Translations under genes and position numbers: made by a program | Notes under the pieces: generated by a model | The model's input: only the letters and a program-made list of their open reading frames with translations | Database searches by the model: none | Told to the model about the DNA's origin: nothing | Assembly: GCA_009777935.1 (NCBI GenBank) | Contig: WRKU01000002.1 | Span: 11,205-75,204 of the forward strand | Length of the DNA stretch: 64,000 bases | Origin: Coriobacteriia bacterium | GTDB taxonomy: Bacteria; Actinomycetota; Coriobacteriia; WRKU01 | Direction: 5' to 3' | Shown: piece by piece, positions 4,577 through 60,498 of the stretch | Layout of the letters: each line of letters begins with the position of its first letter | How positions within the stretch are numbered: the first letter of the stretch is position 1

Positions 4577-4625
4577 CCCATCTTGTGACATGCCGTGATG
4601 GGCACTATGTGCCTTAAAACCGTGT

Positions 4626-4631
4626 TATAAT
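4626..4631 (+). promoter_or_regulatory. Putative -10 box (TATAAT) with conserved downstream leader 'ATATCTGAGACGAAAGG' ahead of paralog A
   Basis: TATAAT sits 30 nt upstream of the ATG at 4661. A GAAAGGGA ribosome-binding site follows. The same leader motif recurs upstream of 13668. Confidence 0.35.
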
Positions 4632-4660
4632 CGAGCATATCTGAGACGAAAGGGATATTC

Positions 4661-5536
4661 ATGACGAAAAAACTCGTCACACGAGTCGCTATGCTTGTCG
4701 GCGCAGGTATTATGGCGTTCGGGCTGGCAGGGATTGCCGTTGCCACGACGCCAGCTGAACTCTCCGAGATGCAGTACGTCGTTGCTGAGAACACGGAAGT
4801 AGGAACCAGTCTCATGACTGTGTATGGCTTTCTGCCAGACGATACCTCACTTCCGGCAACTGCACATTTCTACGCACCTTCTGACTTCTTGCTTGTCAAT
4901 GTTTTTGGGTTAACGCTTGAGGAAGATTCACGGGAAGTTGTGGTGTCGCATACGGCGACCGAGGAGGACAACGGCTTCACGCGCTATGACGTTGTTTTTA
5001 CTGAGAGCACCATGTTTATAGCGAGTTTTGTGCTTGACGCAAAGATATATGACACGACAGTGATGGGCGGTCCAAGTGCTGCTCCCATCGCTGAACTTGA
5101 GGTCCTTCCTCCAAATGACCTTGAGCTTCTTACGATTGGGTTTGTCGCTCCTGAGGGCTATGCAGGCGTGGGTCAAGGGGTGACTCAGCTGGGAACCGAT
5201 TATGATGGCAACGAAATCTACGGAATTGATTACACCAATGTTCCGGGTGATGAGGTCATTGTGGCGGTCGTCGCCTTTGGTCAACAGTTCGAACAAGTGG
5301 AGTTTAATGCAGAGAACGTAGCGTTGGCGACAGTGTGGTACGAAGAGCCGTTCACGTGGATTATGGGCGCGCTCATATTTGCTGCGGCAGGTCTTGCCGT
5401 TGTCCTCTACCTGATACTTACCTGCAAAGGCCCGTTTGCCTCACGTAGTGACGTAGGAACCCACGATGTGCAAGATTCCGATACACCAGCTAACACCGAC
5501 ACAACAACTTCCGATGAAGAAGCTTCAGCGCGTTAA
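4661..5536 (+). CDS. Uncharacterised surface protein, paralog A (N-terminal signal peptide, about 230-aa ectodomain, C-terminal TM anchor and acidic tail)
   Basis: Hydrophobic N-terminus, single C-terminal helix 'WIMGALIFAAAGLAVVLYLIL'. Shares a 'L.IGF.APEG..G.G' block with the proteins at 13668 and 14541. Confidence 0.55.
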   Translation: MTKKLVTRVAMLVGAGIMAFGLAGIAVATTPAELSEMQYVVAENTEVGTSLMTVYGFLPDDTSLPATAHFYAPSDFLLVNVFGLTLEEDSREVVVSHTATEEDNGFTRYDVVFTESTMFIASFVLDAKIYDTTVMGGPSAAPIAELEVLPPNDLELLTIGFVAPEGYAGVGQGVTQLGTDYDGNEIYGIDYTNVPGDEVIVAVVAFGQQFEQVEFNAENVALATVWYEEPFTWIMGALIFAAAGLAVVLYLILTCKGPFASRSDVGTHDVQDSDTPANTDTTTSDEEASAR

Positions 5537-5582
5537 GGATAGTATTCGACGTCGGTTAGCTGAGGATGACGCTCGGCCCCCG

Positions 5583-6527
5583 ATGACCACAGAGGACGCT
5601 AAGCGCCTTACTAAACGCTTGGCACCGTGGGTATTTCTGGCGGTGGTATTTCTGCTCTTGCTGCCCGGCGCCGTTGCGACGGTCTGGGTTCCCGCGTGTA
5701 GCTCGTGCCATGTTACCGTTGCTGAAGCAACGGCCGAGAGAGCACACGTCGATATGGCCTGCACCGACTGTCATAATACCGGAGGACGTCTCGCATACCG
5801 ACAAATCGTTATGTATAGCATGGTAACAAGGCTTGCCAATCCTTCAAATCTCGGTGCGGCAAACGTGTCTGATGAAACATGTCTCACCTGTCATGAAACG
5901 GACGTCACGCGCGGCACTACGCTGTCAAATGGCATCAATATCAGACATTCGGCATGCGCAGCAACCCTCGCATGCACAGTATGCCACTCGACGGCCGGTC
6001 ACTCGACGCCCGGCCTCCAGTATCAATACTCGATGGATCAGTGTCTCTGGTGTCATACCGACCAAATGGTCGATGCCGCCAACGAGGAAAGCTGCTACCT
6101 CTGTCATGATGGACGGTATCGATCGGTCATACCGAATAACACCTCGGCTTTTCGTATCACCCATAATGAGAACTGGCTTCGAACACACGGGCTTGGCGAT
6201 ATGAACTCTTGCCGGAGTTGCCACACAACGGAAACCTTCTGTGGCAGATGCCACGGACCACTAGTACCCCATCCTCCGACCATCCTTATGCGACATTCAG
6301 AGCCGGCGCGTGATCCGAACAATAAGTGCGACAGTTGCCATCCACAGTCGTTCTGTGACGATTGTCATGGCATGGAAATACCACATCCTGAGCGGTTCCT
6401 CCAAGAACACGCTGCCATCACCAACGAGCTTGGCGAGGACGCCTGTTATGGCTGTCATCTCACGAGCGATTGTCTGCGGTGCCATATGGCGCACATTCAT
6501 CCGGGTTGGGGGGTGTTCACGCGCTGA
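5583..6527 (+). CDS. Membrane-anchored multiheme cytochrome c with 12 CXXCH motifs (NapC/NirT-like N-terminal anchor)
   Basis: CSSCH, CTDCH, CLTCH, CTVCH, CLWCH, CYLCH, CRSCH, CGRCH, CDSCH, CDDCH, CYGCH and CLRCH were counted directly. N-terminal helix 'WVFLAVVFLLLLPGAV'. The start is uncertain: the ORF opens at 5466, with alternative ATGs at 5514 and 5583. 5583 is chosen because it lies just after the upstream stop at 5536. Confidence 0.75.
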   Translation: MTTEDAKRLTKRLAPWVFLAVVFLLLLPGAVATVWVPACSSCHVTVAEATAERAHVDMACTDCHNTGGRLAYRQIVMYSMVTRLANPSNLGAANVSDETCLTCHETDVTRGTTLSNGINIRHSACAATLACTVCHSTAGHSTPGLQYQYSMDQCLWCHTDQMVDAANEESCYLCHDGRYRSVIPNNTSAFRITHNENWLRTHGLGDMNSCRSCHTTETFCGRCHGPLVPHPPTILMRHSEPARDPNNKCDSCHPQSFCDDCHGMEIPHPERFLQEHAAITNELGEDACYGCHLTSDCLRCHMAHIHPGWGVFTR

Positions 6528-7735
6528 TGCAAGACTTTATCGATACCCTTTGGCAGATTGTCAACGTTCCCGTGCACGAAGACTCCTTTGCACAGCGGCT
6601 TGACTATCTGGCCGGTGTCATACGAAATCCGCAATCCGATGTTCCAGTTGCCATTCTGCTTTTTGCGATAGCATCACTTATTATTCTGGTAATCTTTTCT
6701 ATTGTTTTGTTAATAGTCTTAAGACTTGCGCACTCAGAGCCGACGTACGCGCTCGTTGACGCCGAGGGTAATCCTATTCGCGAGATATCGGCCGAAGAAG
6801 CTGAGAAGCGTCTCAAAGGGTCACCACTTGAAAAGGTGCAACGAACAACACGTGAGATACTCGATAAGACGGCGGCAAAGATTGCTATCAACATTATCAT
6901 ATGGGTTGGTATCGCACTCATTGTGGCGGCAATTACGGGGACGGCGACACGCTCGAATACGTTTTGTAACTCGTGCCATGAGGAAAACAATCATTCGCAA
7001 ATGCTTGCAGGCACTGCTCATGCAAATGTACTCTGCGTCGACTGCCACGAGACTGGAGGGATGGTGCAGTCTTTCACGGTGAACGTGCCAGGACGACTCG
7101 TTCATACTGCAGCGGGCTTTTTCTGGCAGTCGGGTGTGAACTACGCGTTCTTCCCGCGCGAATCGTGCTTCCGGTGTCATCCGCGTGAGAGTCTTGCTGA
7201 GACGATAATAGTCGACAACATTGCGATGCAACATGAGCCGCCCCTAGAGGCAGGGCTTACCTGTATTCAGTGCCACACTTTTAGTCCCTCACAGGAGTTT
7301 TCGTTTTCAACGCGAGGCATGCAAACGTGCTTGCGCTGTCATGATGGCGAGAACGTTAATCTGGACTGTGAAATATGTCACCGTCCTTCGTTAAGCGTTG
7401 TGCCGCGTACCGAACTCGATCCGGATACAACGGCTCAGGCACTACTCCAAGGTGTCGACTTCCAGCAAGGTTGTTATCGCTGTCACGACCCACGCCCGTG
7501 CGACGCATGCCATGGCTATCGTATACCACACGCCGAGGGCTACACGTTTCAGCCGCATGTCGATGATGCGCGGCGATATGGGTATCGAACGTGCTTAATA
7601 TGCCATTGGAAGGGGTCACCGACGGGTATTCCCACCTGCGATGATCCGGGATGTCATGGCAATATTTGGCAACTGATGGAGGTTCCCAACCCTTCCGGAC
7701 AAGTGCCCAGCCCCTCTTGGCGACGGCTCAGATAG
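6527..7735 (+). CDS. Membrane-bound multiheme cytochrome c with 9 CXXCH motifs plus one CX4CH, and two TM helices
   Basis: CNSCH, CVDCH, CFRCH, CIQCH, CLRCH, CEICH, CYRCH, CDACH, CLICH and CDDPGCH. TGATG overlap with the upstream cytochrome. Helices 'VAILLFAIASLIILVIFSIVLLIVL' and 'INIIIWVGIALIVAAITG'. Confidence 0.8.
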   Translation: MQDFIDTLWQIVNVPVHEDSFAQRLDYLAGVIRNPQSDVPVAILLFAIASLIILVIFSIVLLIVLRLAHSEPTYALVDAEGNPIREISAEEAEKRLKGSPLEKVQRTTREILDKTAAKIAINIIIWVGIALIVAAITGTATRSNTFCNSCHEENNHSQMLAGTAHANVLCVDCHETGGMVQSFTVNVPGRLVHTAAGFFWQSGVNYAFFPRESCFRCHPRESLAETIIVDNIAMQHEPPLEAGLTCIQCHTFSPSQEFSFSTRGMQTCLRCHDGENVNLDCEICHRPSLSVVPRTELDPDTTAQALLQGVDFQQGCYRCHDPRPCDACHGYRIPHAEGYTFQPHVDDARRYGYRTCLICHWKGSPTGIPTCDDPGCHGNIWQLMEVPNPSGQVPSPSWRRLR

Positions 7736-7736
7736 C

Positions 7737-9482
7737 GTGCTCGATTCTATGCGTAAATACGCTCTGGCGCTCTTCATGCTCGCGTGTTTTCTCGCGCCGG
7801 GCGCATTCCTCATCTTCACTGTTCCTCAACTTTACTACGCACAGATATGGTTCGTAATAACACCGCTTATCGGTTATGCGATATTCGCCGTATGTGCGCG
7901 TGGAGATACGGTCTTTTCAGAACGAGCACTTTTTATTACAACACTCATCGTTGGCGCAGCGCTCGTGCCGCTACTTGTGAACCCGCATATCTGGCAACAA
8001 ATTACGTTTGACATCTATGGCGAGATGCCGCTTATTTTGTGGCTGATGTATCCGCTTGTCTTTTTTATGGCATCGACGGTAAAGTTTGATTCGTCGGTTC
8101 GTCCGGGAATCTATGCGCTTGCGTACGTCGGCTTCTTGTTGATTGTGGTGGCCGGTGTTCAGCGTCTCATGATGGGCGATTGGTCGACGGTCTTTGGAAG
8201 TCGTGCATATTCGACGGTGGCGTTTGCCCCCATTCCCCTTTTGCTTCTTTACACGGCGAACCTCGACAAAGAGCACAAACCGGTGCATCTTGCGGCCGCT
8301 ATACTGGCTGTCGTCGGTGTTGCTTACTCTGGCGGCGCACTGGGTCTGTACACCGTCGCAGCTCTGCTGCTTCTTGCCGTGAGTTTTGCACCCGAGCTAC
8401 TGCAGATGCCGACGAAAGCTACCACATGGGCAAAACGAGGTGGGCGAGTCTTGCTGACGCTGTTTGTTACTGCTTCAGCCGTGGTTACCTTTGCGCCTGA
8501 CCTCGCACATACGATGCCCGATATTGCCGTGTTTTCCTCGAATGCGGTGGCGACGCGCATTCATCTCTGGGAGGCAGCGCAGAGGATGTTTCTCGCCGAA
8601 CCGTTATTCGGTTTTGGACCGGCTGGCTATCGATTCTCAGCGATACAGTTTTACGACCCTCAAATCTTTGAGTACACCATGACACTTGGCACCGACCCTA
8701 TTGCCTATAGCTCGCCGTCGCCGCACTCGCTTGCGTGGGAGGTGCTCACGAGGCTTGGCCTGTGGGGTGCTGTGCTTTTGACGGCTGCAGCGGTCGTGTG
8801 GGCTATTGATTTACGTGAAGCAATCCAAGAGAAAACGCGTAATAACCCGCGCATGTTGTTCGCTCTGTGTACGCTGGCCGCGCTTATGGCGCTCTTTGCG
8901 ACACCGTTTCATTTTGCGAGCGGCCTGCTCGTCGCGCTCTGTGCGGGATTGGCGATTGCGCCAACGGCGAGGGTGACAAAAGCGCGGGCTCCCCATTCTG
9001 CGCCGCAATCGTTGCGCTTCACGAATTTCTTGCCTGTCGCGCTTCTTGCGACAAACCTTATTCTGGTGCTTATCGGGGGATATGCGCTTTACGCACACAT
9101 CAATCTCCACACTCCTGACCCAACACCACAACACTATTTGGTACGGCTTGAGAATCTTCGTGCACGGGTGCCGGGCTATCCGTTTGCCGAGCGCGATTAT
9201 TATGAGATGCTCATCGTGACCGCTGGCGCACCACAGCAACAAGATGCTATCGCCGAAGAGATACTTACGCAAGCACCTTCGTATGTTTCGGGTTTTGGGC
9301 CAAATCTTGCATGGTATGCAGGGCTTATGCTCGATAACCTTGAGCGATGGGAAACAGACTCCGTGCGCTCTACGGATTCCGTCGTTATGGTACGCGCACT
9401 TCTCGATTGTGCAGCCGAAATAATGCCGTCGACCCCGGCGTATCTTGAGGCGCGCGAACGTTTGGCGGTTATGGTAGACTAA
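7737..9482 (+). CDS. O-antigen ligase / Wzy_C-domain membrane protein (candidate O-oligosaccharyltransferase or polymerase-ligase) with a C-terminal soluble extension
   Basis: At least 10 TM helices. 'HLWEAAQRMFLAEPLFGFGPAGY' resembles the conserved periplasmic loop of WaaL, PglL and Wzy_C proteins. Possible GTG start at 7737 or ATG at 7749. Confidence 0.55.
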   Translation: MLDSMRKYALALFMLACFLAPGAFLIFTVPQLYYAQIWFVITPLIGYAIFAVCARGDTVFSERALFITTLIVGAALVPLLVNPHIWQQITFDIYGEMPLILWLMYPLVFFMASTVKFDSSVRPGIYALAYVGFLLIVVAGVQRLMMGDWSTVFGSRAYSTVAFAPIPLLLLYTANLDKEHKPVHLAAAILAVVGVAYSGGALGLYTVAALLLLAVSFAPELLQMPTKATTWAKRGGRVLLTLFVTASAVVTFAPDLAHTMPDIAVFSSNAVATRIHLWEAAQRMFLAEPLFGFGPAGYRFSAIQFYDPQIFEYTMTLGTDPIAYSSPSPHSLAWEVLTRLGLWGAVLLTAAAVVWAIDLREAIQEKTRNNPRMLFALCTLAALMALFATPFHFASGLLVALCAGLAIAPTARVTKARAPHSAPQSLRFTNFLPVALLATNLILVLIGGYALYAHINLHTPDPTPQHYLVRLENLRARVPGYPFAERDYYEMLIVTAGAPQQQDAIAEEILTQAPSYVSGFGPNLAWYAGLMLDNLERWETDSVRSTDSVVMVRALLDCAAEIMPSTPAYLEARERLAVMVD

Positions 9483-9521
9483 GGGGTGTTTAGGACAGGT
9501 CTGAAGGTGAAAGGCGGCGCA

Positions 9522-10298
9522 ATGAGTGACGCAGATAAGCCGGTAGAAAAAGAAGTTGTAGTCGTGCGCAAGAAGCAGAAGATGTTTGATGATCCGGTGA
9601 ACCGGGTGCTTGGCGTTATTATCGCAGCACTTATCATCTGGTCGTTGGGGACGATATTAATGCTCATCTTGACCGGTGTCATTAACCTTTCCGGCGCACC
9701 ACAGAACGCCGATGATGCCGCCGTTCTCAAGTATGGGAGCGCACTCGATGCCGAAGCTGATTCGTGGCAGTGGCAGTTCTATGTGGTGACGCTTATTGAA
9801 TCGGGCAGATTGGCCGAGGCCGAAGCAGTCATCAATAGCGAAGACTTTCAGAATATCGATGTCTATCAGCATCAAGAGATTCTCTACTGTACGGCACTGC
9901 TCGAGTTCCGCCGAGGCAACTACGAAGAGGCCATCGCTCTTTATCGGCAGGTTATCGAGAAGACAAGAGAGTCGTACGAGCACATGCTCGAGACCGGTGG
10001 CGAGCACATGAACTGGGCTCTTGCTGAAGGCATATCTCCGAACTACTCCTTTGCGCTTCGCGATTTGACCGGTGCCTATATGGCGCTAGAAGAGTGGGAG
10101 TCTGCCTTGGAGACAGTGAGCCATTATCTTGAGATAAATCCTCAAGAGGCCGGTATGCTCATTGACCGCGCTCATATCAAGGAGCAACTAGGCGACTACG
10201 CCGGCGCTATAGCCGATCTTGAAATGGCGCAGGTATTCTTGCCAGAGGATGAAGAGGTTATCGAAAGTATCCAGCGTGTTGAAGGGAAACTGCAATGA
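9522..10298 (+). CDS. Tetratricopeptide-repeat protein with N-terminal TM anchor
   Basis: Single helix 'VLGVIIAALIIWSLGTILMLIL', followed by helical repeats with TPR-like spacing (e.g. 'EAIALYRQVIEK', 'GAIADLEMAQVFLPEDEE'). A ribosome-binding site (GAAAGG) lies upstream of the ATG at 9522. Confidence 0.6.
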   Translation: MSDADKPVEKEVVVVRKKQKMFDDPVNRVLGVIIAALIIWSLGTILMLILTGVINLSGAPQNADDAAVLKYGSALDAEADSWQWQFYVVTLIESGRLAEAEAVINSEDFQNIDVYQHQEILYCTALLEFRRGNYEEAIALYRQVIEKTRESYEHMLETGGEHMNWALAEGISPNYSFALRDLTGAYMALEEWESALETVSHYLEINPQEAGMLIDRAHIKEQLGDYAGAIADLEMAQVFLPEDEEVIESIQRVEGKLQ

Positions 10299-11599
10299 GC
10301 GAGGAACTAAAAGAGACACAACCGCAGAGTGTACCCCCAGCGGATTCGGATGCACAGTCACGGGTTGTTGAGATAGACGAGGCGCATGGTTCGGGCAAAA
10401 ATTCGGGTCGGGTCGCCCTTATTGTTGCTTTGATAACCTTGCTGTTCCTCATGGCGCTAGCAGCAGCCCTCCTTTTTTTCCTGACCGGTGGTCTGGGGGG
10501 TGGTGGTAGAACGGTCGCCGGTGTCACGTGGATACGGTCTATCTATGGCACCGGCCCCGAGCAGCACCAGCAGCACTCTCCCGGCGACGCACATCCGGCC
10601 CCCAGTGGCTCGCGCATGTTTGTGACCGATCAGTTCGGTATGCGTATCATCGAGTACGATCACAACGGTATGTATCACGGGTCGTTCGGTGGTCCGGACA
10701 CACTGCCGTATCCTTCGAACCTTGCCATCGCTGCCGACGGAACTAAATATATTGCGATGCAGACCCACGACAGAATCGTCATCTACGATTCGAATAACAA
10801 TCAAATTGGCGCCATCGAACTTCCCGAGTCACCGTTCTCTGTTGCCGTTAATCAAGACATGTTGCTGGTAGGTATGCGCGGAGCCTTTGGTGCTTTTGAG
10901 CTGGACGGTACTGAGATTGGATACGTCGGATCGTTTGGTAACGGCGAGTTCCAGTTCGATAATATCAGCGGCGTGGCTCTTGATAACAATAACAACGCAT
11001 ACATTGTGGATACGTTCAATAACCGTATTAGCAAGTATGATCCAGCCGGTGAACGGATATGGATTCATCGCACAGGTGTTCCGCGCAACGCAGGAATGAA
11101 CATTGCGCTTGAGGAGGATCTGGAAGTATCGCGCGAACTTTTTCCCTCTAATATGCAAATGCCCATGGGCGCTACCATCGATGCAGCCAACCGCCTCGTC
11201 ATCGTCGATATGATGGACTTCTCCATTGCGGCCTTCGATATGGAAACCGGTGAGTTCATTGATAAGTGGGGTACGTTCGGCGAGGCCGATGGCGCTCTCC
11301 ATTATCCAAACCAGATTGAGTACCATCGTGGCGAGGATGTGTTCTACATCGTTGAAACAGCGTTGGGTCGTGTACAGATTGTTTCATTGCCGGGTTCTGG
11401 CGGTGGCCTACTTACACAGTTAAATCGCAACTTGGCCGGTCCACTGGGTGCCTGCCTGTTACCGGTTCTCCTGATTATCGTCATCGCCACTGCCTATTAT
11501 GTAGCGCGTAAGATAATGAGAAAACGTGCCGAAGAAGCCGAGATTAAAGCTCAAGAGGCTCCAGAAGATACTGAGATGGGAACCAAAACGGGGGAATAA
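10295..11599 (+). CDS. NHL-repeat (six-bladed beta-propeller) protein anchored by both N- and C-terminal TM helices
   Basis: Repeated 'Y..D..N.RI..YD' blades, e.g. 'AYIVDTFNNRISKYDPAG', 'RLVIVDMMDFSIAAFD', 'VFYIVETALGRVQIV'. TM helices near residues 40-65 and 385-410. ATGA overlap at the start. Confidence 0.65.
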   Translation: MSEELKETQPQSVPPADSDAQSRVVEIDEAHGSGKNSGRVALIVALITLLFLMALAAALLFFLTGGLGGGGRTVAGVTWIRSIYGTGPEQHQQHSPGDAHPAPSGSRMFVTDQFGMRIIEYDHNGMYHGSFGGPDTLPYPSNLAIAADGTKYIAMQTHDRIVIYDSNNNQIGAIELPESPFSVAVNQDMLLVGMRGAFGAFELDGTEIGYVGSFGNGEFQFDNISGVALDNNNNAYIVDTFNNRISKYDPAGERIWIHRTGVPRNAGMNIALEEDLEVSRELFPSNMQMPMGATIDAANRLVIVDMMDFSIAAFDMETGEFIDKWGTFGEADGALHYPNQIEYHRGEDVFYIVETALGRVQIVSLPGSGGGLLTQLNRNLAGPLGACLLPVLLIIVIATAYYVARKIMRKRAEEAEIKAQEAPEDTEMGTKTGE

Positions 11600-11632
11600 C
11601 GCCATATGTTAATCTTTCTTAATAAAATTATG

Positions 11633-11663
11633 CCAATCCGCGGTCGATTTGGTCGCGGATTGG
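11633..11663. promoter_or_regulatory. Perfect 10-bp inverted repeat CCAATCCGCG-N11-CGCGGATTGG in the AT-rich leader upstream of the secreted cytochrome
   Basis: Seen directly. It lies 34 nt downstream of the stop of the upstream gene and about 170 nt upstream of the ATG at 11835. It could be a U-less terminator hairpin or a dimeric transcription-factor operator. Confidence 0.4.
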
Positions 11664-11834
11664 TGCGTCAAATATCACCTGAAATTACTTAAAAATCTTT
11701 CTGAAAAATATTTATTTTTTCCCGAAAATTTGATATACTATATATGGCTGACAAGTGTCAGATATTCTATGCTCGGATGGGGGGTGATAACAATGAAAGA
11801 GATGAAAAATGTTCCTTCTATTAAAGGAGATAGT

Positions 11835-13451
11835 ATGAAAAAAGTATTACTTACGCTTGCTTTGGCAGCAATGCTCGTCTTTGCATTTGCATCCGTTGCC
11901 GGAGCTAAGTATGCAGGTTATGCAATCGACGGTAACCGCGACCGCAACGAGATTAATTCCGAGACCGGAACCGTTAACTCACCACAGCCCGGCTTCCTCT
12001 CATGGGGCGGTGCTATCCGTATGCAGGATGCGAGTGGCTTTACCGCAGCTGCAACGGCACCCGGTGCACCCGGTGTTGGTAACGTGCACGGTGGCTATGC
12101 TATCGCGTCGTCTAAGTGTTTCGTCTGCCACTCTGCTCACCGCGCAGGTGTAGCAACGACACGTGCCTCACTGACCATGGGTGGCGCAGCGTGCGGTATC
12201 TGTCACACCGTATGGGGTGGCGGCGGTGCCAACAAGAAAGTTGAGTACAACCGTGACGAGATGCGTCCGCACTCGAGCGCAGACACGACCTGTCACCAGT
12301 GTCACGGTGGCGGTATCCACGGTGGTGGGGGATCTGAGTTCGCGGGTATGAACATGTTCCTCATTGGTGGCAGGGCTGACAGTCTCATCAGAGCAGAGAT
12401 TGGCGCGGACGCTGCCGATAACTCGAAGCCTAATCAGATTCCAAGTGGTCTGACAGCCGCTCGTACATGGTTTTTCGATAACGCTCCAGCATCGTCTGAT
12501 GCGTGGACCATTCCTACAGGTCTGAATCGTCAGACATGGAGTGTTGCAAAGGGTACCGTTACCGGTATGACCTGTAACCGGTCCGGATGTCACACCAACT
12601 CAGTCTTTGCTATCAATGAGTGGGGTGTTGGTGCGACGCGTAACGTTTCGAGCTCTAACCTTGGTGCAGCAATGGGCGGCACAGATACCAATACCGATCC
12701 GATTGCACACACCGGTCACATCAACCCTGGGCGCTATCGCAACACAGGTGGCGACGATTGTGCGCCGTGTCACGCCGGGAATGTATCCGCTGGCTTCCGT
12801 ATGCGCACGGTAGCGGGCTATGAAGATGCAGAACCTGTTGGTGTCGACGGTGACCGCTCGACTGCTTATGGCTGTGACCAGTGTCATGATATGGTCGGTG
12901 TTCAGACCGGTACGACCGCCTTCCCGCACGGTAACCGCGTAGCGGTATACGAGTGGGATGATAATGGTGCTGCAGTGACGACGACCTCGACGGCCGGTAA
13001 TCTCTGGATGTATGCAGGTAACATTGCTCAGATTTCTACCGTTAACTCGACCTGGTCCACCTGGCGTCAGGCCGACGGTATCACCGCACCAGCGGGCTCT
13101 CGAGTTCCCTCTCCGGTCGATCCTAGTTTCCGCGTCATTAACGGTGCGGTTGGTAGCAACAACGACGGTACTGCCAAGGACGGTGCGTGTCTGAAGTGCC
13201 ACATCACGACCGACGATGCGTCGTTCTACCATCTGGTGGGAAGCTATCCGGCAACGGTCGGTCCTGATGGATTCCGTCAGGCACTTACTCCGGCTGCTGT
13301 GGGTACCCGTCACCAGAATCGCGCTATCGGTACTTACTTTAACGCGACCACAACGACAGGCACCGCGTGGCAGAACAAGACCGTCTTTGACGGTACAAAC
13401 CTTGCCTCTGTCCGCGACAACGGTTCAGATGTTATCTGGATCTTCCGCTAG
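11835..13451 (+). CDS. Secreted Gly/Thr-rich multiheme cytochrome c with 6 CXXCH motifs plus one CX4CH
   Basis: Signal peptide 'MKKVLLTLALAAMLVFAFASVAGA'. A ribosome-binding site (AAAGGAGA) lies 7 nt upstream. Motifs: CFVCH, CGICH, CHQCH, CAPCH, CDQCH, CLKCH, CNRSGCH. No TM helix after the signal peptide. Thr-rich segments such as 'TTTSTAGN' and 'TTTTGTAW'. Confidence 0.8.
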   Translation: MKKVLLTLALAAMLVFAFASVAGAKYAGYAIDGNRDRNEINSETGTVNSPQPGFLSWGGAIRMQDASGFTAAATAPGAPGVGNVHGGYAIASSKCFVCHSAHRAGVATTRASLTMGGAACGICHTVWGGGGANKKVEYNRDEMRPHSSADTTCHQCHGGGIHGGGGSEFAGMNMFLIGGRADSLIRAEIGADAADNSKPNQIPSGLTAARTWFFDNAPASSDAWTIPTGLNRQTWSVAKGTVTGMTCNRSGCHTNSVFAINEWGVGATRNVSSSNLGAAMGGTDTNTDPIAHTGHINPGRYRNTGGDDCAPCHAGNVSAGFRMRTVAGYEDAEPVGVDGDRSTAYGCDQCHDMVGVQTGTTAFPHGNRVAVYEWDDNGAAVTTTSTAGNLWMYAGNIAQISTVNSTWSTWRQADGITAPAGSRVPSPVDPSFRVINGAVGSNNDGTAKDGACLKCHITTDDASFYHLVGSYPATVGPDGFRQALTPAAVGTRHQNRAIGTYFNATTTTGTAWQNKTVFDGTNLASVRDNGSDVIWIFR

Positions 13452-13495
13452 GATGTGTTTAAGTGGTTTAGTGTTACAATGTGTTTAGCGTAACA

Positions 13496-13530
13496 AGAAG
13501 GGGTCCTCCGGGACCCCTTCTTTATTGCCC
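13496..13530 (+). terminator. Rho-independent terminator
   Basis: AAGAAGGGGTCC-TCCG-GGACCCCTTCTT perfect 12-bp stem followed by TTATT, 45 nt after the cytochrome stop. Confidence 0.7.
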
Positions 13531-13667
13531 TGCCGCGCTTCATGTACCATCCGGCGCATCTCTTTCTGTTCCGGTCTCACCGCCATGCTACCTCTTTTCC
13601 GGTAAAGGTATATAATAGATGCGTAACGCGTGTCCGGTAAGTATATCTGAGGGCGAAAGGTACGAAC

Positions 13668-14480
13668 ATGATGAGACGACGTGGCATTCTTTCCGCATTC
13701 TTAGGCACAATCGTGCTTTTGGGTGTGTTAGGTATTGGCATCTCTGTGGCTGGTGCCGCGGTCTTTAATCGAATAAGCGTAATCGCTCGTCCCTACGATG
13801 CTTTTACGACCGAATACACGGTAATTGCGAGGCCGTCTGTGCACGACGCTCCGGTTGGCACCGCACAGCTTGTCTTGCCGCGCGACATCACGGTGGTTTC
13901 TGCACGCCATATCGCGGATGCCAGTAGCGTGGATGATGAGGGCGAAGCAGAATACACCGTCGAGCCACATTCGAATGGTATTGATGACGTCTACACCTTT
14001 GTTTTGGCCGATGAAGAAGGCACAAGCGGGCTTTTCGATTGGCAAGGAGTTCAGATAGTGCTCCACGCCGATGAACCGCTGTATTCTGAGACCGATGACG
14101 GTCAAATTGTGTCTTCGTTTCGATTCGTTGCACCAAACCCTCTATCAGGTCTCGAAATTGGCTTCGAGGCTCCAGCGAGGATGACAGGCAGCGGTGCTGG
14201 TGTCGTTTTGCTTGAGGAGGACGCATACGATAGGGCAGTATATGGTATTACTCGCGCAGAGAACGTGCGTGCGGATGAAGAGATTGTTGCACAGGTCGTC
14301 TTCAATCTTATTGAAGATCCTGGTCCGGCCGAAGCCGTGGCGCTTAGTGTCACTGAGTCAGTCGAAGAACATAACCGGGGCCTCATCATAGGTGCGCTCA
14401 TTGGTGCAATCATCCTTGTCGTCGTAGTCGTCGTGCTCGTTGCACGCAAGGTCAGTAAGGATAGGAAGCAGGCACAGTAG
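13668..14480 (+). CDS. Uncharacterised surface protein, paralog B (signal peptide and C-terminal TM anchor)
   Basis: Signal peptide ending 'VAGAAVF'. C-terminal helix 'LIIGALIGAIILVVVVVVLVA' followed by 'RKVSKDRKQAQ'. 'ADEPLYSETDDGQIVSSFRFV' and 'LEIGFEAPARMTGSG' align with the paralog at 14541. Confidence 0.6.
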   Translation: MMRRRGILSAFLGTIVLLGVLGIGISVAGAAVFNRISVIARPYDAFTTEYTVIARPSVHDAPVGTAQLVLPRDITVVSARHIADASSVDDEGEAEYTVEPHSNGIDDVYTFVLADEEGTSGLFDWQGVQIVLHADEPLYSETDDGQIVSSFRFVAPNPLSGLEIGFEAPARMTGSGAGVVLLEEDAYDRAVYGITRAENVRADEEIVAQVVFNLIEDPGPAEAVALSVTESVEEHNRGLIIGALIGAIILVVVVVVLVARKVSKDRKQAQ

Positions 14481-14540
14481 GCTGCAAACTAAGCCGCAGG
14501 CAGGCTGTTTGTAAAACCTGAACAGGAAGGTAGAGGCACG

Positions 14541-15311
14541 ATGAAGCGACTTGCCATCTTTATGACACTCGTAGGGGCTGTTCTACTCTTTGGCATGACG
14601 GGTTTGGGCGCAACCGAGGCTGGTGCTGCCTTCCAGCGCGTGGTCATCACCGGTTCCCCTCATGGCGATACAGCGGCCGAATACGAGGTTATTGCCCGAG
14701 TCTCGGCCCATCATCTTCCGAAGGATGCACCGAGACTTATACTTCCCGTTGATTTTGACGTAGTCGAGGTGGAGTATCTCTGGAGTGCTATGAGCCAGGG
14801 TGTGGAGCCTGAAAAGTATGCTGTTGGGCCTCATCCCGATGGGTGGGGTAACGTCTATTCGTTTAGCGTGACAGACTGGACAGGAATCCGGCTTGTGTTC
14901 CGTGTCGACGAACCACTGTATCGAGAAAACGACGACGGTGACCTTGTCTCGAGCTATTCTTTTAAAGTTGATTACGCTTTGTCCGAGCTCGTCATTGGCT
15001 TCGAGGCACCTGAGGGCATGGTTGGCACGGGCAAAGACGTTATCTTTTTGGGAGAAAGCGCGGATGATGTGCCTCTTTACGGCATCAACGTTGCGCCGGC
15101 GCGCGCAGGACAGGAAATCGTCGCCGAAGTTACCTTCACTGAACCTGAACCCGAAGTCGAACCGGGGTTCTTTGCGACTCTTAGTGCCAAGATAACCGAT
15201 CTTGCGCGCGAACATACGGTTGGATTAATCGTCGCCGTGTTGGTGGGCGGGATAGTACTTGTCGCTGCGGTTGCACTGTTCGTTGTCTGGCGAAGCCATC
15301 ACGAGAGGTGA
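14541..15311 (+). CDS. Uncharacterised surface protein, paralog C (signal peptide and C-terminal TM anchor)
   Basis: 'VDEPLYRENDDGDLVSSYSFKV' and 'LVIGFEAPEGMVGTGKDV' blocks. C-terminal helix 'LIVAVLVGGIVLVAAVALFVV' followed by 'WRSHHER'. Confidence 0.6.
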   Translation: MKRLAIFMTLVGAVLLFGMTGLGATEAGAAFQRVVITGSPHGDTAAEYEVIARVSAHHLPKDAPRLILPVDFDVVEVEYLWSAMSQGVEPEKYAVGPHPDGWGNVYSFSVTDWTGIRLVFRVDEPLYRENDDGDLVSSYSFKVDYALSELVIGFEAPEGMVGTGKDVIFLGESADDVPLYGINVAPARAGQEIVAEVTFTEPEPEVEPGFFATLSAKITDLAREHTVGLIVAVLVGGIVLVAAVALFVVWRSHHER

Positions 15312-15521
15312 AGCTTTCGGAAGATAACACCAAAATGGGCGACGTGTTAGCACAACTCGGCAGATTGCTCAGAGCAGAAGTCACATGACAGTAACATAAA
15401 TCAGGTTAATGCAAACATACATGTCGTATTGCAGTAGGATGAAGTGAGCGGCATGGGGTCTGTGTGTGCAATCTGCCGCAAATGGTTTCTAATTTGAGGT
15501 ACACCAGCAAGGAGGGCACTG

Positions 15522-18771: not shown

Positions 18772-19730
18772 CGGACAAGATATTCGTCGCCGGGCACAAC
18801 GGGCTCGTTGGCTCGGCAATTGTGCGCGAGCTTACGCGGTGTGGCTACACGAACCTCGTAACCGCAACGCATGCCGAGCTCGATTTAACCAATCAAGTCG
18901 AAACCTGTGCTTTTTTCGAGCATGAACGCCCCGCTTACGTCTTTCTTGCCGCGGCGAAGGTCGGCGGTATCGGCGCGAATGCGGCCGAGCCGGCTCCATT
19001 CATCCACGATAACCTCGCCATTGCGCTCAACGTCATCGATGCAGCGTATCGCACTGGCGTCACCAAGCTCTGTAACCTCGGCTCTTCGTGTATCTATCCG
19101 CGTGACGCTGCACAGCCTATGGCCGAGGCAGCGTTGCTTACCGGACCGCTCGAGCCGACGAACGAGCCATACGCTATCGCCAAAATCGCCGCCATCAAGC
19201 TGTGCGAGGCGTACAACCGCCAATACGGCACCGACTTTATCTCGCTCATGCCGACGAATCTCTACGGTCCGGGCGACAACTACGACCTCACGACGAGCCA
19301 CGTGCTACCCGCGATGATTGCACGTTTCGATGACGCCAAGCGCACGGGAGCCAAAACTGTGACGCTATGGGGCGATGGTACGCCACAGCGTGAGTTTCTC
19401 TACGTCGACGATTTGGCCAACGCAGCCGTCTTCTTGATGGAACGCCATACCGCTGCTGAGCTCGGCGCATGGATTAACGTTGGCTCGGGCGAGGAGGTCA
19501 CCATCGCCGAGCTTGCGAATCTTATATGCGCGACAATATTTACTGATGGCATGAGCTCGGGCGGCCCCGCCGCACCTCCCACCATCGAGTGGGATGCTAC
19601 CAAGCCAAACGGCACGCCGCGCAAGCTTCTCGATTCCACGCGGCTTACCGGCCTTGGCTGGCAACCCAAGACGACGCTCGCCGACGGTCTTGCCGCAACG
19701 TACGCTGCTTATCTCAAGGATCGTCCATGA
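18762..19730 (+). CDS. fcl: GDP-L-fucose synthase (GDP-4-keto-6-deoxymannose 3,5-epimerase/4-reductase)
   Basis: '[28 protein letters not shown]...' short-chain dehydrogenase fold, 322 aa, immediately after gmd. Confidence 0.9.
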
Positions 19731-21553
19731 GCCTTATCGAGCGCATTATCAACGTTCGTGCGACGCGCCGCCGCTGGCAGATAGCACTCGCGGTGACTGA
19801 TGCAGCCGCCATTACGCTCGCCACATTGTTGACCTATCTCGCACGGTTTGAGGGCGCCGTTCCGCCTGAATTCGCACGCTTCCTCTTGCCAATGATTTTC
19901 GCATCGGTCATCGTCTATGGGACGCTTGCCGTTGTGTTTGGGCTCTATCGCGTGGTGCTGCGCTACGTGGGCATCGACACACTTTTGCGCATCGTCGGTG
20001 CCGTCATCATGGGTGCCGCGCTTCTTGCTATCGGCGATATATGCGTGAGTGCGTTTCGGGCATGGCAACGTCCGGTACCGCTTGGCGTTATCGGTATCCA
20101 GGCGGCGCTCGTTCTTCTGGCACTCGCATCTATCCGTATCGCTGTGCGTACGGCTCAGCATGTGCGTTCGGTGGCGCGTCACGAAGGGGAGCGTGCGCTA
20201 ATCGTTGGCGCGGGCAGTGCCGGCTCGCTTTTGTTGCGCGAGCTACAGATGCGTCGAGATATCGGCGTTGACGTCGTCGGTTTTCTCGATGATGATTCGG
20301 GGCTTGCGGCGAGTATTGTGGGCGGGGTGCGGGTTGTCGGCACAACCGCCGAGCTTGAGGATATCGTCGCAGCTGAAGATATTAGCGAACTGTTTGTTGC
20401 GCTTCCGAGCGCCAACGACACAGCCGTGCGCACTCTGCTCAATCGTGCGGCTGACCTTGGTCTTACCACCCACATCATGCCGAAAATCGTCGTCGAGCGC
20501 GGCAGCGTGCGCCTATCCGATATGCGCAAAGTCAACGTCGAAGACCTCCTTGGCCGCACACTGACTCCTATCGATACGCAGGCGGTGCGCACCACCCTTG
20601 AGGGTAAAATCGTTGCGGTGACCGGCGCAGCAGGGTCAATCGGCGCCGAGCTGTGCCGCCAGATTATCCGTATGTCTCCGGCCGAGCTTCACCTTTTTGA
20701 GATCGATGAATCGCGACTCTACGAGCTGCACTTTGAACTCGATGCAATCAAGGCCGGTATAGCACAGATGCACATTCTTGATATTCGTGACGAAGCTAAG
20801 GTTGAGCGGGTATTTGCCGACATCAAGCCGCAGGTTGTGCTCCACGCGGCTGCCTACAAGCACGTGCCGCTTATGGAAACCGAGCCGGCCGAGGCGTTGC
20901 GTACCAATGTGCTTGGCACGGCACACATCATCGATGCCGCTGCTCGTCATGGTGCCGAGCATTTTGTTCTCATTTCGACCGACAAGGCTGTTATGCCTGT
21001 CAACGTTATGGGCAAGACCAAAGAACTCTCCGAACGCCTTATGCTCGAGCGTGCCGCACGTTATCCGCAGATGACCTGTGTGGCGGTGCGCTTCGGTAAT
21101 GTGCTTGGCAGCCGTGGCTCGGTCGTGCCTATCTTTGAGGAGAAGCTATTGCGTGGTGAAAACCTCACCGTGACCGATGAGCGTGCTACCCGCTACTTTA
21201 TGGTAATCCCCGAAGCGGCGCGGCTCGTTTTGCAGGCGCAGGCGATTGGTGCTACCGGCGATATATTTGTACTTGAGATGGGTGAGCCGGTGCGTATCGT
21301 CGACCTTGCCCGCAAGATGATTGCGCTTTCCGGTATTCCCGTTGAAATCGAGTTCATAGGTTTGCGTCCGGGCGAGAAGTTGCACGAAACGCTTACCAAT
21401 GAGATGGAGGTGCTTGAGCCGACGTCGGCCGAAAAGATTCAGCGTGTTGCACGTCTAGCACTGGCACCACTCGATGAAGCGACCTATGCGCGTATCACAG
21501 CGCTTGCCGAGAACGGCCCCACGACCACACCGACTGAGGTGCTCGCGCTATGA
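19727..21553 (+). CDS. Membrane-anchored nucleotide-sugar 4,6-dehydratase (PglF/CapD/WbpM family)
   Basis: Four N-terminal TM helices, then a Rossmann '[12 protein letters not shown]' and CapD-type dehydratase domain. ATGA overlap at 19727. Confidence 0.85.
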
Positions 21554-22866
21554 GTCGAGCGACAGCAGACAAAAAACTAGCGATAGACGGCGGAACCCCC
21601 GTGCGTACAACGCCCTTTCCGGCGTGGCCACCGGTGGCTGGTGAGACGGCTGGTGTCGGCATCGGTGCAGGTCAAGGGAGTGATCGCTACTTTAAGCGTG
21701 CGTTGGAACGAATTGCTGCTGTTCTTTCAAGCGGTCGCATTAACTATCACACCGGTGGACAGGGAAAGACCTTTGAGGCCGCCTTCGCAACGTGGCTTGG
21801 TGAAGATGCGCCTTATGACATGGCCCCGCTCTATGCGCTCGCCGTTGTTAACGGTACCGTTGCGCTTGAGATTGCGTTGCGTGCCCATGGGATTGGCTCT
21901 GGTGACGAGGTCATCATCCCGAGCCGCACCTTTATCGCAACAGCCGGTGCCGTCGTTGCCGTGGGCGCTACGCCGGTTATCGCCGATATCGATTTGAGCA
22001 CTAACTGCGTGACGGCGAAGACCTGTGCTCAGGTGCTTACGGCGCGTACGCGTGCGATTATTCCGGTACATCTCGGCGGTTTTCCTGCACCGGTTGCCAA
22101 AATCCAAGCACTCGCCGCGCAAAATGGGGCAATCGTTATCGAAGACTGTGCCCAAGCACTCGGTGCTCGTTCGGGTGGGGCGCATGTCGGTACTACGAGT
22201 GCTGCGGGCTGCTTTTCATTTTGCCAAGATAAGATTCTTCCGCTTGGTGAGGGTGGCATGATTGTCTTTACCGATGAAGCGGCCTACCACCGCGCATGGG
22301 CGTATCGTGACCACGGACGTAGCTATGAGAAAGCACACGACGCGACCGTCGGTGCAGCGTCATCTGAGTTCACGTGGCTTAACGATTCCTTTGGTACTAA
22401 CGCACGTATGACCGAGTTTCAGTCTGCGTTGGGTTTGGCAGCATTCGATGAACTTGAGGGTTGGCTTGCGCAACGTGCCGCCAACGCGGCCGTGCTGGTA
22501 GACGCGATGGCTGAGCTGCCCGGTATTGAGCCGGTTGTTGTGAACGCTAAGGAGGACACCTACGCGTACTATCGCCTTTACGCACGCCTCAACCTTGAGC
22601 TTCTTGCCGACGGCTGGACGCGCAATCGCGTTATCGATGCACTTAACGCTGAGGGTGTACCGGTACAGTATGGGAGCTGTGCGCTTATCGGGCGTGAGGA
22701 GGCCTTCGCTAATGCGGGAATTGCTGTGACGGCTGAGCTTCCCGGTGCACAGGCAGTTCATGAGGCCACACTAGCATTTTTTGTGCACCCTACCGCCACC
22801 GAGGCTGATATGGCTGATGTGGCTACGGCCCTGTACAAGGTCCTAACTGCGAGTACACTGGTATAA
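21550..22866 (+). CDS. DegT/DnrJ/EryC1/StrS-family PLP-dependent sugar aminotransferase
   Basis: 'GTVALEIALRAHGIGSGDEVIIPSRTFIATAGAVVAVGATPVIADID' motif. ATGA overlap with the upstream dehydratase. Confidence 0.85.
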   Translation: MSRATADKKLAIDGGTPVRTTPFPAWPPVAGETAGVGIGAGQGSDRYFKRALERIAAVLSSGRINYHTGGQGKTFEAAFATWLGEDAPYDMAPLYALAVVNGTVALEIALRAHGIGSGDEVIIPSRTFIATAGAVVAVGATPVIADIDLSTNCVTAKTCAQVLTARTRAIIPVHLGGFPAPVAKIQALAAQNGAIVIEDCAQALGARSGGAHVGTTSAAGCFSFCQDKILPLGEGGMIVFTDEAAYHRAWAYRDHGRSYEKAHDATVGAASSEFTWLNDSFGTNARMTEFQSALGLAAFDELEGWLAQRAANAAVLVDAMAELPGIEPVVVNAKEDTYAYYRLYARLNLELLADGWTRNRVIDALNAEGVPVQYGSCALIGREEAFANAGIAVTAELPGAQAVHEATLAFFVHPTATEADMADVATALYKVLTASTLV

Positions 22867-37119: not shown

Positions 37120-40100
37120 ATGGCTTATTCGCGGAAACTTCTGTCGTCCGTGTTAACCTGCGTCCTTTTGCTCAACGTCTTTGCTCCCACTCTTGCGTTT
37201 GCGGAAAATGGGAGTGTTCAGGCGGAATCTGACGTAAATACCGCCCATGAGGATATTACGACAGGTACCGGCATCGGCCTTGATGACGGCACTGGCGGTA
37301 CTGGCTCAAGTGAGCAGAAAAACATCACGTTCGATTTTGCGTCGACCGTCTACGAAGAGACCGTCGATGCCATTGTTGATGTCGTCGAATACGTGTATAT
37401 CGATGCACTTGAACTTGTGTTGGGTACGCCACAGAACGTCGTCGTTGGTTTTATCGACGAGGAACTTGAACCAATTTCAGCGACGCTCTATTTTGAGCAT
37501 CTTGAGAGCGGGGCGCAACTGTCGGCAAAGGCAGATAATGCTATACCGGGTGCCGTGCTCTTTGAGCTCGATCCCGCCGATCTTTCGACACTCGGTTCTT
37601 ATCAGCTTACAAGTGTTGAGTATATGTTGGCGCTCGATGGTCACGTGTATGTCGTCGACTTCTCGACCGACCCCGAGAATGCTTACTTTTTTACTGTGGT
37701 AGAAGAAGGCACCAAAGGCGATGAAGGTGGGGATACGGTAGAGATTACCGCCTTTGCCGTCGATGAAGGCGGCGCTCTCGTCGAGCAAGAGGAACTTACC
37801 GTCGCGCTTGAAGAGGCAGAAAGTGCCATCACCGGGGTAGCCATTTCGGCATCTTCTGCGATAGCGCCAACGTCGAGTGCGGCGCAAATTGTTGTTGTGC
37901 TTGATCCCGGTCATGGGGGCACTGAGCCCGGTGCGGTGTACGGTGGTATGCGGGAGGCCGATATCAACCTTGCCATCGCACAGGCCTGTGCTGATGAGTT
38001 GAGGCAGTATGATGGCGTTAGGGTCGTCATGACGCGCACGACTAACGTAAACATGTCTATCGTTGATCGTGCCATCTTTGCTGCCAACCAAGGCGCACAC
38101 GTGCTCATTAGCATTCACTGTAATGCGAGCACTAACACAGCCGTCAACGGAGCCGAGATTTGGATTCCCAACAATGCAAGTTTCCACTTGGACCACCATT
38201 ACGCGGCTTCCCAGCTGTCTATTCGCATCCTTGCGGAGCTCCAACAGCTTGGTCTTGCCAATCGTGGTTTTTTTACGCGCAATGGTGATACGAACTACCC
38301 CAGTCCCGGTGGCCTGACCGACTGGTATGGACTTATTAGAGAGGCGCGCCTGCGTAACGTTCCCGCTATTATTGTCGAAAATGCTTTTATGAGCAACCCT
38401 ACGGAGATGGCACGTCTGAGCAATCCCAGCTTCCTTAGGCAGCTTGGCGCTGCTAACGCCACAGGAATTGCGCTTCATTTTGGTTTAACGAAGTGGACAT
38501 GGAATGCGCAGGTCAGCTCGACGCTTGCTTCGAATCAGCGCACCGCCACCATTACTATTGCACCTGCTGGCGCACCGGCGGGGCTCACCTCGATACGCGT
38601 ACCGGTGTGGGGTGCCGCAAATGGTCAGAACGATATCCGCTGGTACAACGCCGTGCGCCAGCCTAATGGTTCATGGACGGTTACCGTTCCCCTCTCCAAT
38701 CATCGTGAAACCGGGCGATACCATGCCCACGCCTACGCGCGTACAGACGGTGCCGAAAAACTCATTGGCTCAACGACCTTTACGGTTACGGCACCGACAG
38801 GCAGAATTGCTACCAGCCATTACAACGCTGCAGCAGGCACTTTTCGTGTCACGGTAAGCAACATCAACGCACCTGCCGGCATTTCACAGGTACGCGTTCC
38901 GGTATGGCATAACAACAATGGACGTCAAGAACACCTTGTATGGTACACAGCAACACGCCAGTCTAACGGGGATTACACCGTCAACGTCGCTGCCAGCAAT
39001 CACGGGTGGCGCACGGGTACCTATGAGGCTCACGCATATGTGCGCGATGGCAATGGTGCTGAAACACTAGTCGCAGGTACACGCCAAACGGTACAACGCC
39101 CTCCCGTTGAAGTACGCACGGCAGTCTCAAGCAATCAACGACAGGTGAGCTTTTATGTCGCCGGTGGACAGACCGTTAACGCCACGGCTGTTTGGTTCCC
39201 GACTTGGTCTAATCGTAACGGCCAAGATGATCTCGTGTGGCATCGTGCCACACGTATGGCCGATGGTTCCTGGCAGGCTACCGTACCGCTCTCACTTCAC
39301 CGTGATACCGGGGCATATACCATGCATGTGCATGCCGATATACCCGGCTCTGGACGTGTAGTGGTAGGTTCGAAGGCCTTTACGGTAACTCCACCGACCG
39401 GTCGTGTTTCTACCAGCCACTATAACGCCTCGACTGGTATGTTTCGTGTTACTGCCGGCAATCTGAGAGTGCCTCAAGGTATATCCGAGGTGCAGATTGC
39501 GGTATGGCGCGACAACAATGGACGCCAAGATCAGCTCAGGTGGTTTCGTGCCACACGTCAGGCCAATGGTGACTACACCCTTAACGTAGCGGCCAGCAAT
39601 CACGGATGGCTGACCGGCACCTACGTTGCTCACGCGTATGTGCGTGATGCTAACGGTCACTTCACGATAGTTGGCAGTGCGCGACAGAACGTACAGCGTC
39701 CTCCCGTTGAGGTACGCACTGCTGTGTCAAGCAATCAGCGACAGGTGAGCTTTTATGTCGCCGGTGGACAAACTGTCAATGCCACGGCTGTTTGGTTCCC
39801 GACTTGGTCTAACCGTAACGGTCAAGATGATCTCGTGTGGCACCGCGCGACGCGTATGGCTGACGGCTCCTGGCAGGCTACCGTACCACTTTCACTTCAC
39901 CGTGACGCTGGAGCATATACCATGCACGTTCATGCCGATATACCGGGTGGCGGTCGTGTCATAGCTGGCTCCAAAAACTTTACCGTTGCACCACCGACGG
40001 GCACTCCGGTAGTAAGAAGCGTGAACACCAACGCAGGTACGATGGTTGTCGAGATGACGGTGGGATCTCCTGCCGGTGTCCAAGCCGTCCAGTTCCCCTT

Positions 40101-60390: not shown

Positions 60391-60498
60391 ATAATGGCAC
60401 TGCCCTCTCATGTTTTTGGCTACCATCTGCGTGTGTGTACAAGTCTTTATTTTATCATATCGGCTATAATGCTCGTACGGACCCTAAGGGGAGAAGAC

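Follow-up and report, generated by a model that had tools for sequence, protein, structure and literature searches.

A twelve-heme cytochrome of Coriobacteriia joins an NrfH-like head to diheme repeats and may feed an extracellular electron-transfer conduit

What could a bacterium of the class Coriobacteriia do with a protein that carries a dozen heme-binding motifs on little more than 300 residues? This question is raised by a gene, hereafter gene B, of contig WRKU01000002.1 (assembly GCA_009777935.1), analysed here within a stretch of 64,000 nucleotides (contig positions 11,205 to 75,204) that we call the window. Its product is identical to GenBank MCL2024299.1 (locus tag FWG78_00775), a protein from a Coriobacteriia metagenome-assembled genome (MAG) that is named only "hypothetical protein". 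An initial annotation, made from the letters of the window, had singled it out for its heme density. We propose, with moderate confidence and from comparisons of sequences and gene neighborhoods, that B oxidises quinol and serves as the entry wire of a conduit for extracellular electron transfer.

The open reading frame (ORF) that holds gene B (5466..6527, plus strand) encodes exactly 12 canonical CXXCH motifs, starting at nucleotides 5697, 5760, 5880, 5973, 6042, 6093, 6210, 6240, 6327, 6354, 6444 and 6471, and no CX3-4CH variant. The initial annotation had counted 12 such motifs behind a single N-terminal helix, and both our translation and the hydropathy profile agree with it. Outside the three cytochrome genes, the six frames of the window contain only 5 CXXCH in about 128,000 codons. 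At this background rate, chance would provide about 0.012 motif per 314 codons versus 12 in gene B, and the motif set is therefore real. Furthermore, the ORF is colinear over its full length with 75 homologous sequences that are 31-68% identical to the window protein. Since the homologues align from end to end, nothing hints at a frameshift or an assembly error, a possibility that the initial annotation had raised. An artefact or a decaying gene (chance motifs, assembly error or pseudogene) could be invoked from the MAG source of the sequence and its "hypothetical" label, and from nothing else. Against it stand the expectation of about 0.01 motif, the colinearity with the 75 homologues and the size of the family, for which an exhaustive profile search retrieved 484 clusters (50% identity) at E<=1e-30 and 2,259 at E<=1e-10. 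This explanation is refuted by conservation; we rejected it and give it a negligible probability.

Gene B fits the multiheme c-type cytochromes in general, its CXXCH motifs being on a predicted exported domain with enough conserved candidate axial ligands. The Pfam families Cytochrome_C7, Cytochrom_c3_2 and Paired_CXXCH_1 are all matched above cut-off by the gene B family. No cytochrome c maturation gene was found in the 64-kb window. At another locus (L003, 1008..4823), genes for ResB (system II cytochrome c maturation), a UbiA-family prenyltransferase and a radical-SAM protein precede the homologous genes. Because synonymous sites are saturated, no dN/dS value (ratio of non-synonymous to synonymous substitution rates) could be obtained against the 68%-identical orthologue. 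A promoter and terminator scan of positions 4300-15700 gave sites no more numerous than in shuffled sequence, and Rfam and tRNA scans of the window gave no matches.

How constant is this protein among relatives? A word-indexed search with the gene B protein retrieved 23 relatives, and a pattern scan of one genome per species yielded 78 genome loci which, with five metagenome loci, make a set of 83 loci. Most genome loci are labelled Coriobacteriia, Actinomycetota or Anaerosomatales, and "Eubacteriales" is the submitter's label on 11 of the 78. Every one of the 12 motifs is kept without change in 17 database homologues and in the 75 distinct full-length sequences obtained from the 83 loci; the 24 motif Cys and 12 motif His are kept across these 75 sequences, and 76 ORFs of the family have exactly 12 motifs. 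The gaps between successive motifs are also near-constant in the 75 sequences (medians of 23, 43, 30, 24, 13, 38, 9, 29, 9, 30 and 9 residues). Moreover, 11 His outside the motifs (H55, H122, H140, H194, H202, H230, H238, H268, H276, H304 and H306) are conserved in at least 95% of the sequences, as is Met151. This makes exactly twelve candidate distal ligands for 12 hemes, and we infer that these residues are the distal heme ligands. Another Met, M80, is conserved in 87% of the sequences.

From the ATG at 5583, the protein has 25 Cys, the 25th being Cys125 (5955..5957), which belongs to a motif H122-x-x-C125 located six residues ahead of heme motif 4. C125 is found in 69 of the 75 sequences (92%) and is missing from the paralogue encoded by gene C (see below), while the adjoining H122 is invariant. 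C125 might ligate a heme (His/Cys) or serve as a redox-active thiol. In three more distant relatives of about 315-345 amino acids (aa), P0018, P0021 and P0022, the first heme site, just past the transmembrane (TM) helix, reads CXXCK and not CXXCH. In addition, the TPR-NHL-cytochrome gene set described below is present twice or three times in several MAGs, on the same contig or on different contigs (loci L011, L028, L066 and L073; L027 with L046; L063 with L068 and L072).

The first part of the protein gives an indication of what it may do. It had been likened to NapC/NirT proteins at the outset, a likeness that profile comparisons bear out. The family profile over residues 15-148 aligns colinearly with residues 17-150 of PDB 2J7A_C, the menaquinol dehydrogenase NrfH of Desulfovibrio vulgaris (E 1.2e-9). 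This alignment covers the TM helix and hemes 1-4, and it places H55 and H140 of B on His residues of NrfH. Furthermore, the Pfam family NapC/NirT (PF03264) is matched by 16 of 33 gene B relatives, with a best E of 3.1e-12. As in NrfH, NapC, NirT and CymA, a single N-terminal TM anchor is directly followed by heme 1, and four CXXCH with conserved distal His come in the same order. However, these proteins have 4-5 hemes on about 160-200 aa, whereas B has 12 on 314 aa. Tetraheme and pentaheme (TorC-type) proteins of about 160-400 aa serve a partner reductase, whereas the genes that accompany B include no reductase and no gene of a partner enzyme. The first 150 residues or so of B look like a NapC/CymA-style tetraheme module, yet they score below every curated cut-off.

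The N-terminal end itself depends on the start codon, which the initial annotation had left ambiguous among 5466, 5514 and 5583. All three ATGs are indeed present upstream of the hemes, 77, 61 and 38 codons before the heme-1 Cys, respectively. In a comparison of 73 homologues, about 20 loci leave no more than 38-47 codons from the in-frame stop upstream to the Cys of heme 1, and the commonest ATG is 37 codons before this Cys. In the 68%-identical orthologue (locus L001), the N-terminal tail is limited to 14-21 residues. Because of this spacing of stops and ATGs in homologues, ATG 5583 is favoured as the start. The ambiguity is nevertheless real, since the best Shine-Dalgarno-like sequence (AGGA) is located 7 nucleotides ahead of ATG 5466 and NCBI picked 5514. 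The choice of start leaves the TM helix and the hemes unchanged. Hydropathy predicts one hydrophobic helix only, and the heme-1 Cys is residue 39.

What of the eight other hemes? They form four tandem diheme units, U0 to U3, each of which reads CXXCH-linker-CXXCH and then has two conserved His, in most cases arranged as PH-x7-H. Profile-profile alignment (hhalign) of U1 with U2 gave a probability of 99.1% (E 7.6e-19), and the remaining pairs of units gave 91-96%. A profile of hemes 5-12 retrieved only noise from the PDB, with no solved sequence relative, and a single-sequence PDB search with the gene B protein gave no match. AlphaFold2 (AF2) models of B reached a predicted local distance difference test (pLDDT) score of 58 with 17 sequences and of 75.3 with 33 sequences.

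The density of hemes in B is 26.2 residues per heme for the 314 aa from ATG 5583, and about 23 past the TM helix. It is higher than in tetraheme NapC/NirT proteins and comparable to or higher than in MtrA, as initially claimed: going by chain lengths, NrfH has 159 aa for 4 hemes and MtrA 333 aa for 10. The triheme cytochromes c7 match this density with chains of 70-72 aa, and GSU1996 and GSU0592 have 12 hemes in about 42 kDa (PMC10138318). The heme density of B is thus neither exceptional nor unprecedented, being equaled by cytochromes c7 and GSU1996. Hence, the interest of this protein is in its architecture and its conserved gene cluster, not in the heme count alone.

Membership of B in known families of multiheme cytochromes was considered and rejected in three cases. 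Like GSU1996 and GSU0592 of Geobacter (PDB 3OV0), B packs its twelve hemes into a single short chain, and the density is about equal (PMC10138318). However, GSU1996 is a soluble periplasmic protein with four c7-type triheme domains, whereas B has an NrfH-like tetraheme part, four diheme repeats and a TM helix. In proteins of the GSU1996 type, a triheme c7-like domain that includes one His-Met heme is repeated to give four in tandem; B shows a 4 + 2+2+2+2 spacing, diheme repeats and only one invariant Met, and its matches to c7 profiles are weak and local (E 8e-4 or worse). MtrA/DmsE (TIGR03508) was rejected at 24.0 bits versus a cut-off of 192.2, B having 12 hemes, not ten; a weak profile match to MtrA (PDB 6R2Q chain A) has an E of 4.2e-7. 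MtrA/DmsE proteins are compact multiheme wires of extracellular electron transfer, a role that we propose for B, but B differs from them by its heme number, by the lack of a porin partner and by its monoderm host. HmcA hexadecahemes (NF045713) were rejected at 27.2 bits versus a cut-off of 400, and the PDB profile match of B to HmcA (E 2e-10) is broken into short stretches.

Gene B does not stand alone. The sequence TGATG at 6525-6529 joins its stop to the start of gene C, a coupling to a second, 9-10-heme cytochrome that the initial annotation had correctly pointed out. This stop/start overlap (1 or 4 nucleotides) is kept in 58 of 68 loci. The gene C protein has 9 CXXCH plus a CDDPGCH motif (CX4CH). 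Since the latter aligns with a canonical CXXCH in most homologues, gene C most likely binds a tenth heme; the commonest count of heme motifs among gene C homologues is eleven. When the two profiles are aligned (hhalign probability 100%, E 2.5e-52), hemes 1-10 come in the same order, which makes B and C clear heme-for-heme paralogues. The N-terminal part of C also matches the Pfam family NapC/NirT (E 2.4e-7). Its predicted topology is unusual: the N-terminus would be outside the cell and two TM helices would precede the heme domain, the charged loop of about 50 residues between them being placed in the cytoplasm on the basis of charge distribution.

Furthermore, B and C belong to a conserved module. 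In the 78 genome loci and the five metagenome loci, the usual order is a TPR protein, an NHL propeller, a secreted cytochrome (4-6 CXXCH in most loci), the 12-heme protein and its 9-12-heme paralogue. The window holds these genes in the rotated order B-C-D-E-F-G (Table 1), and every protein of the module is predicted to be extracytoplasmic or membrane-anchored. Among the gene families that recur in the 10-kb flanks of the module at the 78 loci, there is no catalytic reductase subunit. Wzy_C is matched by 21 of 22 gene D orthologues (best E 3e-15), and a gene of this type follows C in 23 loci. Gene E also weakly matches CcmH/CycH-TPR, with synteny in 52 or more ORFs. Gene G starts at 11793 or 11835, its listed ORF opening at TTG 11649. 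With 6 CXXCH and a CX4CH conserved in its family, it probably carries 7 hemes in about 540 aa, a density far below that of gene B. No relative of G was found in the PDB, including OmcS-type proteins, either with the single sequence or with the family profile, the only matches being to signal peptides and low-complexity regions.

Table 1. Coordinates of gene B, its parts and neighboring genes in the window
Feature	Position	Strand	Description
Gene B	5583..6527	+	12-heme c-type cytochrome, 314 aa from ATG 5583; other starts at 5514 (337 aa) and 5466 (353 aa)
TM helix of B	5628..5684	+	residues 16-34 by hydropathy; AF2 helix 3-32; aligns with the NrfH TM helix
NrfH/NapC/NirT-like module of B	5625..6026	+	residues 15-148; hemes 1-4 at C39, C60, C100 and C131
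Octaheme extension of B	6030..6518	+	residues 150-312; four tandem diheme units U0-U3 (hemes 5-12)
Gene C	6527..7735	+	paralogue of B; 9 CXXCH and one CX4CH (probably 10 hemes), two predicted TM helices; start overlaps the stop of B
Gene D	7737..9482	+	12-TM Wzy_C-type membrane protein (O-antigen ligase/polymerase/oligosaccharyltransferase superfamily)
Gene E	9486..10298	+	membrane-anchored TPR protein, TPR domain predicted outside the cell (Pfam TPR and topology)
Gene F	10295..11599	+	NHL-repeat beta-propeller between N-terminal and C-terminal TM helices; synteny in about 63 loci
Gene G	11793..13451	+	cytochrome secreted through a Sec signal peptide (AxA site); 6 CXXCH plus one CX4CH (CNRSGCH) that is conserved
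Gene A	4661..5536	+	surface protein with signal peptide and C-terminal TM anchor; paralogue of H and I
Gene H	13668..14480	+	paralogue of A
Gene I	14541..15311	+	paralogue of A
PglF-like gene	19589..21553	+	sugar 4,6-dehydratase; the same pair (with DegT) adjoins the module in 16-18 other loci
DegT gene	21550..22866	+	aminotransferase; pairs with the PglF-like dehydratase

How could such an assembly work? The NrfH/NapC/CymA-type head of B most likely oxidises menaquinol, electrons being received by heme 1 at the membrane surface and then by hemes 2-4. The four diheme units, over the remaining 165 residues or so, would carry what may be a continuous heme chain eight hemes further from the membrane. 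B probably works with the co-translated C, a pairing proposed by analogy with the NrfH dimer. From B and C, electrons would go through the wall space to the secreted cytochrome G and then to acceptors beyond the Gram-positive wall, likely Fe(III) or humic substances. Two membrane-anchored proteins, the NHL propeller and the TPR protein, may organise or mature this electron route.

Several known systems give substance to this scheme. The OPB41 Coriobacteriia in culture, two isolates in all, include an obligate Fe(III) reducer; the two share a cluster that is described as 'two putative quinol oxidizing multihemes' together with a third cytochrome (PMC9686372). The closest genome relatives come from the guts of two termites, Labiotermes labralis, a soil feeder, and Embiratermes neotenicus, which feeds on humus. 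A route from a membrane quinol-oxidising multiheme to wall cytochromes and then to a surface cytochrome has also been proposed for the Gram-positive systems of Thermincola (ImdcA/PdcA/CwcA/OcwA), of Carboxydothermus ferrireducens (OmhA and putative quinol oxidases) and of the OPB41 isolates (PMC7829351, PMC9686372). However, compared by description only, the cytochromes of Gram-positive extracellular electron transfer include no described 12-heme architecture with an NrfH-like part and diheme repeats, and no TPR/NHL/Wzy_C module is reported for them. NHL propellers are found next to outer-surface cytochromes in Desulfovibrio ferrophilus (PMC5815863) and in Tenderiales (bioRxiv 2022.05.06.490989). 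In the clusters DFE_448-465 of the former and Uet of the latter, as in the module of B, genes for several multiheme cytochromes stand together with those for an NHL propeller and a TPR protein; unlike this module, they belong to diderm bacteria and have outer-membrane components, whereas here the host is monoderm and the propeller is TM-anchored at both ends.

Other observations weigh against an entry wire of this kind. The B protein of the window has no match to PF03264 at E<=0.01, and the NCBIfam models of NapC/NirT and NrfH (TIGR02161/TIGR03153) do not match it either. The NrfH signatures are not conserved: the motif CXXCHXM, specific to NrfH and used in its heme-1 ligation, is absent from the family, where the residue two positions past the heme-1 His is E, D, A, K, G or R and never Met, and the positions aligned with the quinol-site residues Lys82 and Asp89 of NrfH vary as well. 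The AF2 model (pLDDT 75) contains no hemes, and a Foldseek search of the PDB with it found no relative. An AXA-like motif is located only 6 residues ahead of heme 1. Moreover, all 78 genome loci are from MAGs. Finally, the cluster of the OPB41 isolates (PMC9686372) is likely to be this module, a match made by description and not by sequence, since a search of the supplement of that article for accessions of the cluster returned none.

Three other explanations share the same proteins but give them other roles. B and C may form a CymA-like hub that passes menaquinol electrons to soluble or wall-associated terminal reductases encoded elsewhere, acting for instance on nitrite, sulfur compounds or organic acceptors; they would then not be devoted to insoluble acceptors outside the cell. 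NrfH and NapC, which the head of B resembles, do serve enzymes, C125 (92%) beside the invariant H122 could give a His/Cys heme as in cytochromes of the sulfur cycle, and the OPB41 isolates respire sulfur and thiosulfate too (PMC9686372). However, the module conserved in 78 loci has no reductase gene, its constant partners being the other cytochrome, the propeller and the TPR protein, and to reach an enzyme over a short distance, B would hardly need eight more hemes; we consider such a hub unlikely. Equally improbable, in our opinion, is a secreted B whose helix would be a cleaved signal peptide, only C being anchored, and which would act as a soluble wire or capacitor of the wall space like GSU1996 or Thermincola PdcA/CwcA. 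The helix ends in AVA-T, a possible signal-peptidase site that recurs in many homologues, so that cleavage to a soluble protein is conceivable, and dodecahemes of the GSU1996 type, which have the same heme density, are soluble and proposed to be capacitors (PMC10138318). Nevertheless, the hydrophobic stretch has 19-20 residues, the alignment with NrfH covers the uncleaved anchor of the latter, heme 1 comes 5 residues past the helix as in NapC/NirT proteins, and B is not made of c7-type triheme domains.

The conduit could also run inward and reduce menaquinone, the electron donor being a partner cell, a cathode, Fe(II) or reduced humics. Multiheme chains are reversible, and the clusters of cytochromes and NHL propellers of D. 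ferrophilus and Tenderiales are tied to electron uptake. But the relatives in culture reduce Fe(III) with H2 or formate (PMC9686372), and no sequence feature sets the direction of electron flow; we hold electron uptake to be still less probable than the hub or the secreted form. An outward conduit, fed by B from the quinol pool, is the reading that we prefer.

The module is surrounded by other genes for the cell surface. A, H and I, which flank the cytochrome cluster, encode proteins in which a signal peptide, a domain of about 200 aa and, at the C-terminus, a TM anchor follow one another. Identity between H and I is 39%, and A has a block of 61-65 residues in common with each of them; none of the three matches any Pfam or NCBIfam family. 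An orthologue of A precedes B at two other loci (L001 and L002). The rest of the window is one long island of glycan synthesis, which includes the PglF-like and DegT genes. Across loci L011-L081, genes for Wzy_C-type proteins (23 loci), divergent PglF-like and DegT genes (16-18 loci) and GT2 genes recur beside the module. These recurring sugar genes suggest that the cytochromes may be glycosylated or linked to a wall polymer. Two large wall-associated proteins with 5-6 GBS Bsp-like repeats are encoded at 37120..40875 and 58264..60426 (-); one has amidase_3 and glucosaminidase domains and the other a transglutaminase core.

A bolder version of the scheme, which we offer as a tentative and rather doubtful one, would unite the three cytochromes (B, C and G) with the NHL propeller anchored at both ends, the TPR protein and the Wzy_C-type transferase in an undescribed trans-wall electron conduit specific to Actinomycetota. 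Its assembly or anchoring would need glycosylation, or else a wall glycopolymer made by the adjacent PglF, DegT and glycosyltransferase genes, and the octaheme tail of B would be a new diheme-repeat fold, possibly with a His/Cys heme through C125.

Among Gram-positive bacteria, extracellular electron transfer is known in a few Firmicutes and, to our knowledge, there is nothing beyond genome-level speculation for Actinomycetota. The gene B family is unannotated and is mentioned in the literature in passing at most. As judged from sequence, what appears new here is the fusion of an NrfH-like head to four diheme repeats that have no solved relative, its co-translated paralogue, and a tightly conserved module of TPR, NHL, cytochrome and Wzy_C genes restricted to MAGs of Actinomycetota. 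With 78 genome loci and hundreds of protein clusters, this module occurs in OPB41-type Coriobacteriia of the guts of soil- and humus-feeding termites, of aquifers and of sediments. The recurrence of the Wzy_C-type transferase and of sugar genes raises the question of whether glycans are needed to place cytochromes that span the wall. If our proposal is true, B would be a compact wire of 12 hemes that includes its own quinol-oxidising head, and its module would provide a testable molecular basis for the reduction of Fe(III) and humic substances by these abundant and mostly uncultured organisms.

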